Positions 7,873-60,690 of a DNA stretch of 64,000 bases are shown here, piece after piece. A program made the position numbers and the translations under genes. Below the pieces are notes generated by a model. The model was not told where the DNA came from and made no database searches. It saw only the letters and a program-made list of their open reading frames with translations. The number at the start of each line of letters is the position of its first letter. Position 1 is the stretch's first letter. This DNA is from Bacteroides fragilis (lineage in GTDB: Bacteria; Pseudomonadota; Alphaproteobacteria; Rs-D84), in the NCBI GenBank assembly GCA_963630775.1, contig CAVGNU010000003.1:19190-83189 (forward strand), read 5' to 3'.

Positions 7873-8397
7873 TCACTTTGTATAGTAACAATTCTTGTTA
7901 TAAAACTGATACGTATGGCCTGAACTGTCTGTCATTTTTGTATTTGCAGGGATAAAGCAATCCGTTATGGACGATTTGTTGTAACCTGATGTTGTGCCAT
8001 TCACACCATCCAATGCCGGACACCGCGTACATCCGGTGGATACATTACCGTAATATCCAACCGCACACAGGCATGACGTTTTATCATTACTTGTTACCAT
8101 ACCATGTAAATCATTACACGACACGACATAGCACCCTGTTGGTTCACCCACCGCATGATAACTGCTGTCACAACATGGCGACATTTTATATGCAGCGCCA
8201 GACCCCGCCACAGAACATGACGTCGTTCCACCATTGGTAAAATTGCCACAATATATCTGGCCATTAATGGTGACGTAATACCCATAACAACGTGTACATA
8301 AACTGCCCGTGGTGCATGACACACCGGATGCACCCCCGCAAATTCCGGCGATTACAACACCGACAACCATGACACATGCTGTACGATTCCATTTCAT
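7873..8397 (-). CDS. Secreted cysteine-rich protein (family member 1)
   Basis: 174 aa with an N-terminal hydrophobic signal-like segment (MKWNRTACVMVVGVVIAG). About one residue in ten is Cys. The C-terminal module CAVGYYGNVSTGCTRCPALDGVNGTTSGYNKSSITDCFIPANTKMTDSSGHTYQFYNKNCYYTK is alignable with the protein encoded at 39497..39787. Confidence 0.7.
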   Translation of the reverse strand: MKWNRTACVMVVGVVIAGICGGASGVSCTTGSLCTRCYGYYVTINGQIYCGNFTNGGTTSCSVAGSGAAYKMSPCCDSSYHAVGEPTGCYVVSCNDLHGMVTSNDKTSCLCAVGYYGNVSTGCTRCPALDGVNGTTSGYNKSSITDCFIPANTKMTDSSGHTYQFYNKNCYYTK

Positions 8398-8687
8398 TTT
8401 CCCACTCCTTTATTGGGTTAAAAAAAAATACCGCCAAAGAATTGGCGGTCGGGGATTTGAAAAATCATAAGCAAAAATGACCCCGTGACTTTTGAACAAA
8501 ATATGTCCTTATCATCACAGACCCCCGACCGGAATACACACAGTCGGGTTAACAAAACACGGCGCGTAAAACACACCGATGTTTGTTCGGATTTACAACG
8601 CAAGAATGCGCCGTTTTGCTTACAGGATTTTCAAGTCCCAGAGCCAACATCCCTGTTGATTCAGGCAACAGTGTAGAAAATTAATAA
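8398..8687 (-). promoter_or_regulatory. Long structured 5' leader with terminator/antiterminator-like alternative pairings (leader L1)
   Basis: Read on the minus strand: CCCGAC (8548-8543), GGTCGGGGG (8530-8522), CCCCGACC (8454-8447), then CCGCC-AATTCTTT-GGCGG (8448-8431) followed by TA plus T9 (8428-8420), then AAGGAG and the ATG. Possible sigma70 promoter TTGTTT-17 nt-TACACT overlaps the tatA terminator tail. Confidence 0.5.
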
Positions 8688-32602: not shown

Positions 32603-34162
32603 TTATTTATCTTTAATGTAACTAATCTTTTTGTTTTTGCCACCCATGTACCAATCAATCAGTACGCGCGACAACGCCAAACATGTGAACAGTGTTGTAA
32701 TAACACCAATTGACAGCGTCACTGCAAACCCACGGATTGGCCCCGCACCAAACTGGAACAAAATCAAACTGCAAATCAGATTGGTCAGGTTACCATCCAT
32801 AACGGTCTTGGTCGAACGGGTAAAGCCCAAATCAACTGCACACAGAGTTGGAACACCTTCGCGTACCTCGTCACGGATGCGTTCAAACGGCAAAATATTA
32901 GCGTCCACCGCCATACCCAGCGTCAACACGATACCCGCAATTCCTGGTAACGTCAGCGTTGCACCCAAGAATGCAGATATGCCGATAATCATGGCCAAAT
33001 TCACCATTAAAACGATATCTGCAATCAAACCAAATGTGCGATAAGCAATCAACATAAACAAAATTACGAACAACACACCGACCGCTGATCCGACACGTCC
33101 TGCCTCAATCGCGTCCGCGCCCAAACCCGCACCAACTGTGCGTTCTTCGATAACCTGTAATGGTGCTGGCAACGCGCCACTGCGCAGCAATACCGCCAAA
33201 TCTTTTGCCCCCTGCAATGTGAAGCCACCAGAAATCTGGCCCCGCCCCCCTGGGATTGGCTCGCGAATTGTTGGTGCGGACAAAACCTTGCCGTCCAAAA
33301 CAATCGCAAAACGTTCGTTGACGTGTTCCGTGGTCAGACGCGCAAATTTACGCGCACCAGTTGCATCAAACGCCGTCGTTACAACCGGCATATTATTTTG
33401 GTCAAAATCTGCCTGTGAATCTTTCAGTGATTCACCAGATACCTCCACACGGCTGTACACTGGTACAACCTGCTGCGGATTTTCCATATATGGCAAGAAT
33501 TGTGTGCCGTTCGGCGCATGCCCCGATGCAATCTGTTCCTGCGTAACATTTTCATTTACCAAATGGAATGTCATCTTGGCTGTCTGACCAATCAAATCCT
33601 TGATGTGTTCTGGATTATCAACCCCTGGCAACTGAATCAGAATGTATTTTCCACCCTGTGACTGAATAGACGGTTCTTTTGTTCCCAACGCATCAATACG
33701 ACGACGCACAATTTCAATACTGCGCGTCAATGCGTCTTTGACCATTTCTTCTTTCTGCTTTTCGGTGTACTTTAATGTGATTGTGCGACCCGATGATGAA
33801 ATATCAACCCCAGATCCCAGAACACTCTTCAAGCGACCCTTGGCACGCGACACATCATCATCTTCGCGAACGACCAACGACACAACACCGTCAACATTAC
33901 GCAGGTTCGAAAAACGAATAACCCCACGATCGCGATCAATCATCGCACTGCGCGCTTCGTCATACAGTTGCGCTGCTTTTTCTTGGAACATGGTGTTTGT
34001 GTCCACTTCCAATAACAACTGCGCCCCACCCTTTAAATCCAATCCTAATGGAATCGGACGCGCCCACGATGGAAAATACGGAGCCAAGCGCGGTGAAATC
34101 GTCGGCACAGCCAGCAACACACCAAACACCGCAACAAAAATTATCGCCAGTTTCTTAAACAT
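32603..34162 (-). CDS. secD: Protein translocase subunit SecD
   Basis: 519 aa with GLDLKGGAQLLLEV, a large periplasmic domain and a C-terminal 5-TM bundle. Confidence 0.92.
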   Translation of the reverse strand: MFKKLAIIFVAVFGVLLAVPTISPRLAPYFPSWARPIPLGLDLKGGAQLLLEVDTNTMFQEKAAQLYDEARSAMIDRDRGVIRFSNLRNVDGVVSLVVREDDDVSRAKGRLKSVLGSGVDISSSGRTITLKYTEKQKEEMVKDALTRSIEIVRRRIDALGTKEPSIQSQGGKYILIQLPGVDNPEHIKDLIGQTAKMTFHLVNENVTQEQIASGHAPNGTQFLPYMENPQQVVPVYSRVEVSGESLKDSQADFDQNNMPVVTTAFDATGARKFARLTTEHVNERFAIVLDGKVLSAPTIREPIPGGRGQISGGFTLQGAKDLAVLLRSGALPAPLQVIEERTVGAGLGADAIEAGRVGSAVGVLFVILFMLIAYRTFGLIADIVLMVNLAMIIGISAFLGATLTLPGIAGIVLTLGMAVDANILPFERIRDEVREGVPTLCAVDLGFTRSTKTVMDGNLTNLICSLILFQFGAGPIRGFAVTLSIGVITTLFTCLALSRVLIDWYMGGKNKKISYIKDK

Positions 34163-38102: not shown

Positions 38103-38971
38103 ACTATATAGATGTGTTTTTAGAGGCCCTGTCCGCCGAAAAAGGTCGCAGTGCCAAAACACTGGACAGTTATGGCGCGGATTTGCGCGCGGCCGATGCG
38201 GCGTTACCAAATGGCCTGATGTCGGCCACGGCGGACGACGTCCAGAATTATCTGGCGTCCCTGCCCGACAAGGCATCGTCCATCGCACGCCACGCCAGCG
38301 CACTGCGTGGGTTCTATAAATTTTTAATGCTGGAAAAAATCATCACAGAAAACCCAACGGCAAATCTGGAATTACCAAAACGATCGCGCGCCCTGCCCAA
38401 ATTTTTGACGGTGGACGAAATAGAATTATTGATTTCATCAGCGGGCGATGTAAAAAATTCGGTGCGCCTGCGCGCGATGATTGAATTGGTTTACGCGTCG
38501 GGATTGCGCGTGTCGGAATTATGCGAATTACCCATAACCGCAATTCTGGGCGATAAATTATTGATTCACGGCAAGGGGGCCAAGGAACGCATTGTTCCCA
38601 TGCACGCGGGCGCGGTCGCGGCATTGAATAAATGGCTGGCAATGCGTGACGACGAAAAATCAAAATATGTTTTTCCGTCTGGTGGCGCGTCCGGCCACAT
38701 CACCCGCGATGGATTTTTCAAGATACTTAAAAAGTGCGCTGTTTTGTCCGGCATTGACCCGCACCGCGTGTCGCCACACGTGCTGCGCCATTCGTTTGCA
38801 TCGCACCTGTTGGCGGGGGGTGCGAACCTGCGCGCGATACAAACCATGCTGGGACACGAGGATATTTCCACAACGCAAATTTATACCCATGTGATGCCAG
38901 AACAGTTACGCGAAACGGTTGTGGCGCATCACCCACTGGGACATGCAAAATCAATGGACGATATAAAATGA
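38099..38971 (+). CDS. xerD: Tyrosine recombinase XerD
   Basis: I prefer the Met at 38099 (MNYIDVFLEALSAEKGRSAKTLDSYGADL). C-terminal catalytic motifs HVLRHSFASHLL and LGHEDISTTQIYTHV. Confidence 0.85.
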   Translation: MNYIDVFLEALSAEKGRSAKTLDSYGADLRAADAALPNGLMSATADDVQNYLASLPDKASSIARHASALRGFYKFLMLEKIITENPTANLELPKRSRALPKFLTVDEIELLISSAGDVKNSVRLRAMIELVYASGLRVSELCELPITAILGDKLLIHGKGAKERIVPMHAGAVAALNKWLAMRDDEKSKYVFPSGGASGHITRDGFFKILKKCAVLSGIDPHRVSPHVLRHSFASHLLAGGANLRAIQTMLGHEDISTTQIYTHVMPEQLRETVVAHHPLGHAKSMDDIK

Positions 38972-39465
38972 TACGTAAATGTGATCATACGGGCTGTACC
39001 AAGGCCGGCACATGTCGCGCGCCAAAATCGCGCGACCTGCGTGATTATTGGTGGTTTTGTCAGGAACATGCAGCGGAATATAACAAGAATTGGAATTTCT
39101 ATGCCGACATGACGCCCGATGAAATAGAAGCAGATTGGGAACGCCAAACATTTGGCGCGCCCCTGAAAGACAAAGACACCGCCAACAAGGACGAAGCGGA
39201 CTATGTAAAATTCCTGAATGATTTTATCATGGGTCGCAGTGCATTTGACCATGTTGCGCCCAAACCGCGCCCGAACACCACCATCAGCAATGCGTTAAAG
39301 ACCCTGAACCTGCCCCCAACGGCAACGATGCGCGAAATTGGGGCAAGGTACCGCGCGCTCGCAAAAAAATACCACCCCGATACGGGTGGCACGGCAAACG
39401 CCACAGAATTTACCAAGGTAAATAATGCATACCAAACACTGAAAAAGCATTTTGACAAGAAATAA
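38968..39465 (+). CDS. J-domain (DnaJ-like) protein with Cys-containing N-terminal region
   Basis: C-terminal J domain with YRALAKKYHPDTGG (HPD motif). N-terminal CDHTGCTKAGTCRAP...WWFCQEHAAEYNKNWNFY is typical of a conserved alphaproteobacterial J-protein. Confidence 0.8.
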   Translation: MIRKCDHTGCTKAGTCRAPKSRDLRDYWWFCQEHAAEYNKNWNFYADMTPDEIEADWERQTFGAPLKDKDTANKDEADYVKFLNDFIMGRSAFDHVAPKPRPNTTISNALKTLNLPPTATMREIGARYRALAKKYHPDTGGTANATEFTKVNNAYQTLKKHFDKK

Positions 39466-39467
39466 CA

Positions 39468-39500
39468 GAACAGCGCGCCAATGGCGCGCCGATTCTTTAT
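39468..39500. terminator. Hairpin terminator between convergent J-domain gene and the Cys-rich operon
   Basis: GCGCGCC-AAT-GGCGCGC followed by CGATTCTTTATTTT. Confidence 0.6.
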
Positions 39501-39787
39501 TTTGAATAACAACATTTACTCTGTATCACTTGTACACCTGAACCGGTGGTGTCTTGGTAATCAAATTCCGTTCCTGCGGCAAAACAACACGATGTTATGT
39601 CGCCGGTATTTTTATCTGGCGTTGTTGGATACACACCCCCAGACGACGGACACTGGTAACAATTTGAACCACTCAGATAGTATCCTGCCTCGCACGAATA
39701 AGATGTTGTTGTCGTGCATGCCGCATGCGCAACATTCACAATAAATATAACAAATAATGCAGTAATAATTTTTTTCATATTTCTCAC
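39497..39787 (-). CDS. Secreted cysteine-rich protein (family member 3)
   Basis: 96 aa with signal peptide MRNMKKIITALFVIFIVNVAHA. The mature part, CEAGYYLSGSNCYQCPSSGGVYPTTPDKNTGDITSCCFAAGTEFDYQDTTGSGVQVIQSKCCYSK, aligns with the C-terminal module of the 7873..8397 protein. Confidence 0.65.
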   Translation of the reverse strand: MRNMKKIITALFVIFIVNVAHAACTTTTSYSCEAGYYLSGSNCYQCPSSGGVYPTTPDKNTGDITSCCFAAGTEFDYQDTTGSGVQVIQSKCCYSK

Positions 39788-39793
39788 TCTCGA

Positions 39794-40195
39794 TTACAAT
39801 TGATTACACGCCTCACAAGTACCTACCACTTTCCCGGATGCGACACTGCAACATGTACTACACGTGTTCGCATCACACAACCTGGCACAGTACCAATGTT
39901 CCTCGTCTGTGGTGCTGCACGAACCATACATTGCTGTTACATATCTGTGATTGGTGGTATCGTGGGTTGTGCCGGACGTACGTGTGCACGTACCGGAGTT
40001 ATTCGTCCACCCTGATGGACAACTGGCCTCTACCACAGAATAACACGCCCCCAACGAACAGTTTTGTGCGCAAAGAGACAATGATGCATAATACGGATCG
40101 AGCAGCGAAAAATCAGGATTTAATTTTGACGCATCTACCGCAAATGCGCACGGCATCATGACCAGTATCAGCGGAATTGCAAACAGTTTCTTCAT
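39794..40195 (-). CDS. Secreted cysteine-rich protein (family member 2)
   Basis: I prefer the Met at 40195 (MKKLFAIPLILVMMPCAFA signal peptide), preceded by AAGGGGG. 133 aa, about 10% Cys, with CxxC/CC pairs (CSTCC, CEAC). It lies 6 nt upstream of the next Cys-rich gene. Confidence 0.65.
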   Translation of the reverse strand: MKKLFAIPLILVMMPCAFAVDASKLNPDFSLLDPYYASLSLCAQNCSLGACYSVVEASCPSGWTNNSGTCTRTSGTTHDTTNHRYVTAMYGSCSTTDEEHWYCARLCDANTCSTCCSVASGKVVGTCEACNQL

Positions 40196-40330
40196 TTCAC
40201 ACCCCCTTATGTGTTTTGCAAACAAAAAACCACCGAAATAATTCAGGTGGTTGGAGGTTCGAAACAATTATCAAGAATTGTGGGCCTATTCAATATATTC
40301 AGCCACCCTCCAACCGCATGGTTGGGGGTG
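40196..40330 (-). promoter_or_regulatory. Conserved leader module L2 (alternative-pairing element plus hairpin/U-tract before the RBS)
   Basis: Minus strand: CCCCCAACC (40328-40320) atgc GGTTGGAGG (40315-40307), 49 nt, CCTCCAACC (40257-40249) overlapping AACCACC-loop-GGTGGTT (40252-40228), then TTTTTT, AAGGGGG and ATG. Near-identical to 60552-60690. Confidence 0.55.
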
Positions 40331-40378: not shown

Positions 40379-40529
40379 CCGAAATCTCTACCGTCTGCAT
40401 TTTATGACGCGTAATGCGTTCATCTTGATAAAGGGTTTCGACACCCCGCCAATGGAACACCCATCGGCAATGGAATAATAAAATAAAAAAACACTATACA
40501 CAAGAGAAAAAAATATTTTGACCAAATTT

Positions 40530-43272: not shown

Positions 43273-43746
43273 TTATTTCTGGAATTGTTTTTTTGCAGCA
43301 AAATATTTCGGCGACAAAAATCCAAAATACAAATCTTTGAATTTGTTTTTTGACACTACATAGTTCCATTCTTTTATCGCAACCAGTAAATCGTGCTGTT
43401 CAAAATCAAATTTTTCATTTTTGTAAAAACTGTCCAACACGCGCATTACATGCATATACGCCAAATATATCGTGTTATCCTGTGTGCCATATGGAATAAA
43501 CACATTGGGTGATATAAGCAGATTTTCTTTGACACGTGCGGCATAATCCGCATATTTGCGTGGGTTCGCCGCGATTGCGCGCAACTGGGCAAACGCCCGA
43601 TAGAATTCCTGCGCTTGTTCAGGGAATTTTTTGCCCGTTTTGTGCTGCCAGTGTTCAAAATTCGCTTTCAGTGCATTTTCCACCGATGTGAAAAATTTTG
43701 CCACCGTCGCATCCCAATCAACATACAATAAATCAAATCTGTCCAT
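43273..43746 (-). CDS. Hypothetical protein (predicted all-alpha, no recognisable motif)
   Basis: 157-aa ORF filling the gap between the serS terminator and the typA promoter. No competing ORF and no motif I recognise. Confidence 0.5.
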   Translation of the reverse strand: MDRFDLLYVDWDATVAKFFTSVENALKANFEHWQHKTGKKFPEQAQEFYRAFAQLRAIAANPRKYADYAARVKENLLISPNVFIPYGTQDNTIYLAYMHVMRVLDSFYKNEKFDFEQHDLLVAIKEWNYVVSKNKFKDLYFGFLSPKYFAAKKQFQK

Positions 43747-59888: not shown

Positions 59889-60551
59889 TTAAAATGTATG
59901 TCTCAATCCAAAATCAATGCTATATGCACCCTGCAGGTCAAAATCATCATCTGCATTCAAACCGATAAAGTTCAAACTCACATTCCAACCAAGTCCTTCA
60001 ACGGCGGTTTCGCCATTCAGGCCAAACTTTAATACCCCCGCGGCACCATTATCAGACATTGTTTCTTTGCCATATCCGTAAACCTTTACAGATTCATTTA
60101 CCCATGCATGACCCAAGCCGAATGAAAAAACAAAATCTAAACGCCGCCCTTCATTACCAGACAAACGAATATAATTATCGTATGTAAAATACAATGTTGT
60201 TAAATCTATTTTGCCATCCATGTTGACTCTATAAAAATTCCCATAGGAATCTTCCAAAATAAAATTTGGACCAGCGGTTAAATGACCTACCTGGGGCATA
60301 TACGATAATGTTGCACTGACACCACCATTATAAACACTGCTGTGTTCACCAAAACGCAGTCCGAATACCCCAGACCACGTTATGGTGACACCATCAGATT
60401 TTAATATATCGTCATCAATGGAATCTTCCACATCATCTGAAAATACTGGCCCAGCAAAACCAACTTTCATCCCCAGAAACAATTTTGTTTCTGCCATTGC
60501 TGGCATGGCCAAAATAGACAGCAACCCCGTTGTTAAAAATAATTTTCTCAT
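59889..60551 (-). CDS. Small outer-membrane beta-barrel protein
   Basis: I prefer the Met at 60551 (MRKLFLTTGLLSILAMPAMA signal peptide). Beta-strand periodicity and a C-terminal ..GLRHTF. Confidence 0.7.
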   Translation of the reverse strand: MRKLFLTTGLLSILAMPAMAETKLFLGMKVGFAGPVFSDDVEDSIDDDILKSDGVTITWSGVFGLRFGEHSSVYNGGVSATLSYMPQVGHLTAGPNFILEDSYGNFYRVNMDGKIDLTTLYFTYDNYIRLSGNEGRRLDFVFSFGLGHAWVNESVKVYGYGKETMSDNGAAGVLKFGLNGETAVEGLGWNVSLNFIGLNADDDFDLQGAYSIDFGLRHTF

Positions 60552-60690
60552 TTCACACCTCTGTTTATGTTCTGTTAAACAAAAACCACAATGGAATACC
60601 AAAGTGGTTGGAGGTTGAATACTATTATTTACGGAATAGTGTCGCTTATTCTAATATATCGCGACCCTCCAACCATCAAGGATTGGAGGT
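60552..60690 (-). promoter_or_regulatory. Conserved leader module L3 (same module as 40196-40330)
   Basis: Minus strand: CCTCCAATCC (60689-60680) ttgat GGTTGGAGG (60674-60666), 51 nt, CCTCCAACC (60614-60606) overlapping CCAC-loop-GTGG (60607-60586), then TTTTT, AGAGG and ATG. A TATAAT on the minus strand at 60765-60760 could be the promoter. Confidence 0.55.

Follow-up and report, generated by a model that had tools for sequence, protein, structure and literature searches.

A conserved two-gene cassette for exported, cysteine-rich proteins behind a putative attenuating leader RNA in Candidatus Enterousia (order Rs-D84)

The window analysed here, a 64,000-nt stretch of contig CAVGNU010000003.1 in assembly GCA_963630775.1, carries two small adjacent genes for cysteine-rich proteins on the minus strand of positions 39497-40195, referred to below as up (upstream) and dn (downstream). 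The reading favoured here, with moderate confidence, is that they form a conserved two-gene cassette of Candidatus Enterousia, a lineage of gut Alphaproteobacteria with reduced genomes (order Rs-D84), placed behind an attenuating leader RNA, and that their products take part in a surface or contact complex. Unless a contig is named, coordinates are positions in the window; the genome assembly comprises 0.94 Mb in 34 contigs and is 93.6% complete.

The up gene runs from an ATG at 40195 to a TAA stop at 39796-39794 and encodes 133 amino acids; a strong Shine–Dalgarno sequence, AAGGGGG (40208-40202), lies seven bases 5' of its start. The dn gene occupies 39778-39497 and encodes 93 amino acids. 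In the original prediction, the two open reading frames (ORFs) were placed 6 nt apart. Both frames exist, but this spacing holds only for a GTG start at 39787, while the ATG at 39778 (MKKIIT...), with the ribosome-binding stretch GAGAGTGAG, leaves a gap of 15 nt. Judging from the paralogues and orthologues of dn, all of which begin MK(K/R)... and match the ATG, 39778 is the better-supported and likely start. Nothing separates up from dn, and six bases past the dn stop begins a GC-rich, bidirectional intrinsic terminator (39471-39491, both strands; a 9-bp stem with 8 GC pairs and T-runs on both strands), which is common to dn and the convergent DnaJ-domain gene (38968-39465, plus strand). The proposed reading of the locus as a two-gene operon of small, cysteine-rich exported proteins is supported.

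The signal peptides that had been claimed for both proteins are indeed clear when read from the sequence, with an n-h-c layout ending in AxA. Residues 1-19 of up (40195-40139) read MKK-LFAIPLILVMMPC-AFA, cut before VD (MKKLFAIPLILVMMPCAFA as a whole), and leave a mature part of 114 amino acids with 13 cysteines. Residues 1-19 of dn (39778-39722) read MKK-IITALFVIFIV-NVAHA, cut before AC (MKKIITALFVIFIVNVAHA as a whole), and leave a mature part of 74 amino acids with 8 cysteines. Both show the lysines of the n-region, the hydrophobic h-region and the AxA motif of Sec substrates cleaved by signal peptidase I, and neither has a lipobox or its Cys at +1. The idea that dn might be a lipoprotein, modified at its conserved Cys at +2, was ruled out, as position −1 is occupied by Asp, and position −3 by His, Arg or Tyr, in several of the paralogues. 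Because the paralogues carry Asp and other non-lipobox residues before the conserved Cys, up and dn are best read as substrates of signal peptidase I and not as lipoproteins.

The dn protein had been proposed to be a paralogue of the C-terminal module of a 174-residue protein encoded elsewhere in the window (7873-8397, minus strand), in which the dn-type module forms the last ~70 residues (7876-8085). This relationship is significant by every comparison made. BLASTP aligns the two with 37% identity over 70 residues (E=4e-7), and their Smith–Waterman score of 104 compares with 40.9 +/- 7.3 in 1000 composition-preserving shuffles (z=8.7). A hidden Markov model (HMM) built without both window proteins and without close dn orthologues still retrieves dn at E=1.6e-16 and the 174-residue protein at E=8.7e-15 when run against all 12,901 ORFs of the genome. 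The consensus of the module is C-x7-C-x-AGYY-...-C-x2-CP-...-IT-x-C-[YC]-x-P-x-GT-...-D-x-TG-...-C-[YC]-Y-[ST]-x. Among the motifs originally listed as shared, C.AGYY, C..CP, IT.C, the D.TG region and the C-terminal C[YC]Y[ST]x are thus features of the family, but the terminal Lys is not conserved. Each cysteine of the shared six-cysteine framework is kept in at least 90% of 117 aligned family members, and the last one stands exactly four residues from the C-terminus in 100 of the 117. The full framework and the four-residue tail are both present in dn, which therefore has the make-up of this C-terminal cap module.

The family reaches far beyond the small paralogous group dispersed over 30 kb that had been envisaged: this genome alone has 17 members, and the genus has hundreds. 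The 17 proteins found by the dn-module HMM range from 93 to ~370 amino acids, and the module is C-terminal in all of them; in the longer ones, the rest consists of further cysteine-rich repeats and includes no enzyme domain. Two incomplete giant ORFs (>1,000 and >2,370 amino acids) with Listeria-Bacteroides (Flg_new) repeats contain weaker copies of its first half. In an order-wide sample of 150 genomes, 86 of the 107 from the same genus carry the module, as do 94 of the 121 from the family and one of the 29 from the other families of the order, with 0 to 38 matches per ~1-Mb genome. A library of 1.84 billion representative proteins contains 1,366 public clusters with a match at E<=1e-3, of which 332 reach E<=1e-10, and in about nine-tenths of the best 150 the match ends at the C-terminus. 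Source names given for relatives are 'Candidatus Enterousia intestinigallinarum' and 'Alphaproteobacteria bacterium', the latter from metagenome-assembled genomes. Other arrangements also exist: the 317-residue relative P0146 consists of five tandem dn-type modules, and in P0155 and P0194 the module comes first and is followed by an acidic tail of 85-100 residues of unknown type. The dn protein is a stand-alone copy of a cap module that closes nearly every member of a large family of cysteine-rich repeat proteins.

The upstream protein had been described as unrelated to dn and equally rich in cysteine. Both points hold (hhalign probability of 7% against dn; 13 cysteines in 114 mature residues), but up is not a one-off: a profile built from six up-type proteins finds a family of ten in the genome. 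The window protein contains the family core CP-x-GW-...-C-x-R-...-D-...-YG-x-C and scores E=6.4e-40 with this profile, which includes up itself; its pairwise match to the paralogue on C1 has E=4.8e-5. Distant homology between up and dn was also considered and is not supported, since beyond the 7% probability the two share a C-x-GY/GW hairpin only.

The two families are linked by gene order. Six of the ten up genes lie directly 5' of a stand-alone dn gene (the window copy on C3 and those on C1, C9, C4, C16 and C8), and every one of the six stand-alone dn genes of the genome is preceded by an up gene. In the C1 cassette, the dn ATG even overlaps the up stop codon. Cross-reading of match coordinates yields at least 33 further up-then-dn pairs (same strand, within ~100 nt), spread over at least 17 other genomes; matches to the up family in the order-wide search were confined to the same genus, in 26 of 107 genomes. 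Across the six cassettes, up always diverges faster than dn (24-56% vs 42-68% identity), and the pairwise identities of the two are correlated (r=0.85). Because their divergence is correlated in this way, the cassette has been duplicated and kept as a unit.

The cassette occupies a fixed chromosomal site. The order TrxB, cassette, DnaJ-domain gene, XerD, LptF/G recurs in several other genomes, and both frames are intact at this site in at least five of them; at the most distant orthologous locus, the up gene is present though uncalled in the annotation. A locus search with a single-protein query returned two loci. Orthologues of the window up are 78-36% identical to it, and 13 cysteines are kept in four of the five examined, with 11 in the most distant. 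As regards the flanking genes, those for the XerD-like recombinase and the DnaJ-domain protein overlap by 4 nt (ATGA, 38968-38971) and also overlap or abut in the other genomes examined (a 4-nt overlap or a shared coordinate of 1 nt); the pair is therefore an operon that runs towards the cassette.

Because the window cassette sits at a conserved site, orthologues could be followed across species and rates of evolution compared. Against two close relatives (L028 and L029), TrxB is 99% identical in amino acid sequence, with a non-synonymous divergence (dN) of 0.004-0.007, a synonymous divergence (dS) of 0.27-0.28 and dN/dS of 0.01-0.02, and XerD is 98-99% identical. The corresponding values for up are 67-77% identity, dN 0.17-0.24, dS 0.59-0.68 and dN/dS 0.29-0.35, and those for dn are 75-78%, 0.15-0.17, 0.44-0.63 and 0.24-0.37. 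Over all orthologue comparisons, dN/dS is 0.27-0.35 for up and 0.16-0.37 for dn. In the same two relatives, the signal peptides of up and dn are 84-100% identical, compared with 63-76% for the mature parts, and the changes in dn concentrate in its C-terminal hairpin (48% identity to L028 for mature residues 50-74 vs 82% for residues 1-49). In a more distant genome, the flanks are 94-97% identical, dn 67% and up 53%. In this large excess of amino acid change, the mature parts behave as exposed proteins do. Another fast-evolving product of the window is a 157-residue protein without a Pfam hit (43273-43746, minus strand), encoded between the genes for seryl-tRNA synthetase and BipA; it is 70% and 38% identical to its L021 and L026 orthologues, with 90-97% for its neighbours.

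These data also bear on the possibility that up and dn are chance or decaying frames that are never translated, as their lack of database names might suggest. The frames are intact at the same site in the other genomes, dN/dS stays at 0.16-0.37, each framework cysteine of dn is kept in at least 90% of the aligned family members, the Shine–Dalgarno sites are strong and a confident fold for dn is predicted from coevolution. Because of the overall purifying selection, the conserved cysteines and the intact frames, chance ORFs are ruled out, and this explanation is given practically no weight.

Upstream of up lies a leader RNA of ~245 nt (40468-40223, minus strand), which consists of a 5' hairpin (40468-40448), a hairpin formed by strands A (40330-40320) and B (40315-40303, GGUUGGAGG), a three-way junction resembling sRNA-Xcc1, and a terminator. 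Two small hairpins lie between strand B and strand C (40265-40246, CCUCCAACC), and the helix B:C that encloses them forms a putative antiterminator core (40241-40315). The terminator hairpin, AACCACC...GGUGGUU followed by a U-run (40223-40252), is part of the minimum free energy (MFE) fold from ViennaRNA, and its stem covaries. A simple terminator scan, limited to loops of 3-8 nt, did not list it, the outer stem alone giving a loop of 11 nt. The leader is conserved over ~200-250 nt in 10 of 11 regions upstream of cassettes and paralogues, where it starts just after a promoter of the type cTTGt, 17 nt, TATAAT, and it is kept at the orthologous loci L020-L027. Alignment with these promoters suggests a -35-like hexamer TTGTGT (40498-40503) and a -10-like hexamer TATTAT (40475-40480) for the cassette itself, with a 17-nt spacer and 6 nt before the first leader base. 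A simple promoter scan did not list this promoter because its -35 element is weak.

The central feature of the leader is that strand C overlaps the 5' arm of the terminator (40252-40246). RNAalifold picks B:C as the conserved helix. In ten copies, 93% of its cells pair and nine pairs show compensatory changes, a result that none of 500 shuffles matches and that collapses in slid controls. In a register-free count, the cognate B:C helix measures 7-10 bp in all 35 leader copies of the genome (mean 9.5), compared with a mean of 6.2 for non-cognate combinations. The element has the layout expected of a terminator/antiterminator attenuator, as a terminator stands directly 5' of the gene and part of its 5' arm can pair instead in the conserved helix B:C. 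A long-range 5' helix in the MFE fold, joining 40447-40435 to 40265-40253, covaries by eye between sequence classes, but an alignment-free comparison does not separate cognate from non-cognate combinations (7.8 vs 7.2). Attenuation by a leader peptide was considered as well: a six-codon ORF (ATG CGG TTG GAG GGT GGC TGA, encoding MRLEGG; 40299-40319, minus strand) lies over strand B, and the other copies lack its ATG, so that it is probably there by chance.

Among known RNA families, only sRNA-Xcc1 comes close to this leader. The Rfam model RF02221 matches the leader core along its full length (1-87) with 37.6 bits and E=2.9e-5, below its gathering score of 53, and no Rfam family reaches its gathering score on the leader, riboswitches included. 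In both RNAs, two hairpins are enclosed by a closing helix of 9-10 bp, with ACC and a U-rich tail after it, and the two have sequence in common in that helix. Unlike sRNA-Xcc1, the core described here sits within a ~245-nt 5' leader between promoter and gene, where a competitor strand lies upstream of it and a terminator overlaps it, and the genome holds 35 copies.

That the cassette and the locus of the 174-residue paralogue carry the same leader had been proposed and proves correct, with nhmmer matches at 40330-40225 (E=2.2e-16) and 8550-8426 (E=3.1e-15). The core before the paralogue (8426-8550, minus strand) belongs to a diverged sequence class (GGUCGGGGG/AUCCCCGACC). A further core (60581-60690, minus strand; E=1.6e-8), with a cognate B:C helix of 9 bp, precedes the gene at 59889-60551, which resembles those of outer-membrane proteins (OMPs); its product has a signal peptide, ends in ...FGLRHTF and gives no Pfam hit. 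A link between the cassette and this gene was part of the original prediction and is supported at the level of shared control elements.

All 35 leader copies in the genome were found by nhmmer. The genes behind them include those for dn-module and up-family proteins, two OMP-like proteins (one of them that of 59889-60551), family-2 glycosyltransferases, two XRE regulators and an autotransporter. An OMP beta-barrel is among the products. The autotransporter, a 1,074-residue protein with Chlamydia polymorphic-membrane-protein repeats (C11:6920-10171, plus strand), has its leader 127 nt upstream. The regulators are paralogous small proteins with an XRE-type helix-turn-helix (C6:45031-45423 and C7:32930-33313), each behind its own leader, and on C7 two leader cores stand in tandem (32620-32722 and 32859-32960). 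A feedback loop through these regulators suggests itself, and so does a direct action of theirs on the leaders, for which they are evident candidates.

The AlphaFold2 model of mature dn, based on an alignment of 117 rows, shows two beta-hairpins with a mean predicted local distance difference test (pLDDT) score of 86.7 and a predicted template-modelling (TM) score of 0.65. An independent check on this fold comes from mature positions 46 and 71, each beside a framework cysteine, which are Tyr/Tyr in 94 members, Cys/Cys in seven and mixed in none, so that the two side chains must touch. The window dn has Cys at both and therefore a predicted fourth disulfide. The model of up is less certain (mean pLDDT 68.9, core 77-90). 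In sequence databases, Pfam and NCBIfam hold no family for up, dn or the 174-residue paralogue (in Pfam, no hit at E<=10), and sequence profiles of the PDB give nothing better than E=0.02.

Some relatives help to place the dn fold. Those with one extra hairpin (P0058, P0094 and others) match the Pfam family Ephrin_rec_like (PF07699, formerly GCC2_GCC3) with 31.5-37.8 bits, above the cut-off of 23.1, and also give sub-threshold Giardia variant-surface-protein (VSP) and TNFR-like hits. The first half of dn, C-x-AGYY-...-C-x2-C-P, forms the same kind of disulfide-pinned beta-hairpin as the Ephrin_rec_like and TNFR repeats, and the best Foldseek hits of the dn model, weak as they are, include the TNFR proteins DR5 and DR4 as well as EphA4 and EphA2 (E=3.2-6.5, TM-score 0.34-0.39; none at E<=0.001). 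In contrast to these repeats, dn itself has no Pfam hit and no significant fold match; the family is related, but dn alone falls below membership. Its second half, IT.C[YC].P.GT...D.TG...C[YC]Y[ST]x-COOH, is a family-specific cap at a fixed distance from the C-terminus, and the protein belongs to a bacterium, is exported by Sec and comes from a cassette of two genes. Thus, dn is a shortened hairpin of Ephrin_rec_like/TNFR type joined to a family-specific cap. The repeat type itself is already known.

The comparison with Giardia VSPs (Pfam PF03302) is of a similar kind. Both are large, CxxC-rich, fast-diversifying families of exported proteins in which the C-terminal end is conserved and the N-terminal repeats vary. 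On the other hand, relatives of dn score 18.5-28.3 bits against a cut-off of 31.4, and dn gives no hit; it ends in ...KCCYSK, with no hydrophobic stretch and neither a transmembrane anchor nor a CRGKA tail. Nothing here shows expression of one member at a time, and control would lie with a transcription-attenuating leader and not with silencing of the RNA-interference type. The likeness raises the question of whether the family was acquired from a eukaryotic host or neighbour, as a VSP-like or other protist surface protein that mimics eukaryotic receptor repeats. This would fit a repeat type otherwise described almost only in eukaryotes, to judge from the Pfam names and from the literature found, which was eukaryotic only. 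Such an origin is nevertheless very unlikely, as the VSP scores remain at 18-28 bits, below the Pfam cut-off of 31.4, a VSP-type transmembrane tail is lacking, the signal peptides, Shine–Dalgarno sites and leader are bacterial, and the family is confined to one bacterial family, within which its diversity is deep.

A conserved end of ~70 residues on exported proteins with variable N-termini also recalls C-terminal sorting and anchoring domains, such as the C-terminal domain of the type IX secretion system and the beta-domains of autotransporters. The dn module differs from these in having no similarity of sequence or fold to them and no cognate export machinery identified for it; moreover, it also occurs alone, in tandem (P0146) and, rarely, before an acidic tail (P0155, P0194).

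The main alternatives to a surface complex are an internal role in the envelope and release as effectors. In the first, up and dn would be structural proteins of the periplasm or inner leaflet that cross-link or stiffen the envelope through disulfides, as the chlamydial OmcA and OmcB do. The very high cysteine content would suit such a role, as would the apparent co-regulation with OMPs and glycosyltransferases through the shared leader. So would the export signals, which are Sec signal peptides and nothing else: no outer-membrane targeting, lipobox or autotransporter domain can be recognised. Yet structural envelope proteins are usually conserved, and in up and dn the signal peptides stay fixed but the mature parts evolve 25-60 times faster than TrxB, a pattern typical of exposed proteins. 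Copy number, which varies from 0 to 38 per genome, and the lack of sequence or fold similarity to OmcA/OmcB argue in the same direction, and the envelope role is rather unlikely.

Release as disulfide-knotted toxins or bacteriocin-like peptides, acting on neighbouring microbes or host cells as two components or as toxin and chaperone, has to be judged against the architecture of the family. Effectors could well be small, have beta folds rich in disulfides and evolve fast in their mature parts, as up and dn do; the genome encodes a secretin and three TolC-like proteins that could serve as exporters, and the lifestyle of Enterousia is reported to be partner-dependent (PMC12306168). However, the same module ends proteins of up to ~370 amino acids, and adhesin-looking proteins of more than 1,000 residues (those with Flg_new repeats) match its first half more weakly in repeat after repeat. 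The cassette contains no immunity-like membrane gene, up and dn show no similarity to toxin families in Pfam or NCBIfam, and a precomputed Toxin_12 label on one relative was not reproduced. For these reasons, an effector role is considered improbable.

In the preferred reading, a promoter of sigma-70 type would start the ~245-nt leader RNA, whose lowest-energy fold ends in the intrinsic terminator. The alternative helix B:C of the Xcc1-like three-way junction would take up part of the terminator 5' arm, and the leader would hold the unit off until this helix is stabilised. Given the competition between helix B:C and the terminator, read-through probably needs a factor, a ligand or a kinetic condition. 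It would yield a bicistronic up-dn mRNA that ends at the bidirectional terminator, as part of a common regulon of 35 units with the same leader, most of which encode envelope or surface proteins, the OMP-like protein of 59889-60551 included. After Sec export and cleavage by signal peptidase I, up and dn would be folded with disulfides in the periplasm, where a membrane-anchored DsbA-like protein encoded elsewhere in the genome (C8:1873-2760, plus strand; CPYC active site, N-terminal membrane anchor; the only DsbA-like protein found) may act, dn becoming a 74-residue protein of two beta-hairpins and four disulfides. Outside the cell or on its surface, up and dn probably join in a single complex, which would be the split equivalent of the single-chain relatives, with their variable cysteine-rich repeats fused to the cap, and would belong to a fast-diversifying surface or contact repertoire.

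Several observations weigh against this scheme. In the window leader, the terminator fold with hairpin A:B has an MFE of -105.3 kcal/mol and the fold with helix B:C forced one of -85.5 kcal/mol, which makes the B:C state 20 kcal/mol less stable. The sole argument for an interaction between up and dn is their conserved adjacency, and the other four up-family genes are monocistronic, without a dn partner. The Rosetta-stone idea that the N-terminal domains of the single-chain proteins are fused up domains was rejected (hhalign probability of 1.4% for the up family against the fused proteins), and because these N-terminal parts are not up-like, the notion of a split version of a fused protein lacks that support. 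A disulfide link between the partners is likewise not the simple reading, because the number of cysteines is odd in up and even in dn: the six mature up proteins have 13, 9, 11, 11, 11 and 11, and their dn partners 8, 6, 6, 8, 6 and 6. The odd count in up would point to a thiol left free, to homodimers or to a cross-link with another molecule. As for disulfide formation, searches of the genome, which is 93.6% complete, detected neither DsbB nor VKOR; the organism is an anaerobe, reportedly without a respiratory chain. Finally, Foldseek gave no significant match in the PDB for the model of up or that of dn.

For the cap module, the up family, their pairing and the leader, no description was found in Pfam, NCBIfam, Rfam, the PDB or the literature searched. 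The Candidatus Enterousia group has genomes below 1 Mb, with roughly 900 genes at such a size, lacks most biosynthesis and must live off other cells (PMC12306168); the account of the group makes no mention of dn-module or up-family proteins (PMC12306168). A bolder extension of the surface-complex reading, rather doubtful and offered as a speculation, is that the dn module is a universal 'handle' that docks cysteine-rich heads on the surface. The head would be fused to it in the single-chain relatives, and in the cassettes a separate up would bind the stand-alone dn; with ~35 units switched individually by their own two-state leaders, the outcome would be a combinatorial, fast-evolving coat.

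Bacteria of the Candidatus Enterousia group are common in the gut and uncultured. A genome of less than 1 Mb here devotes 17 dn-module and 10 up-family genes, with an RNA leader before 35 units, to linked families of exported, disulfide-rich proteins whose mature and presumably exposed parts evolve at tens of times the rate of housekeeping proteins. The fixed chromosomal site of the window cassette and its orthologues in several species offer a convenient entry point to this system. If the pairing of up and dn and their surface location hold, the family would be a strong candidate to form the layer through which these bacteria make contact with other cells or recognise them. If the 'handle' reading should prove true as well, it would represent a bacterial counterpart of the variant-surface-protein systems of protozoa, in an organism with less than 1 Mb of DNA.

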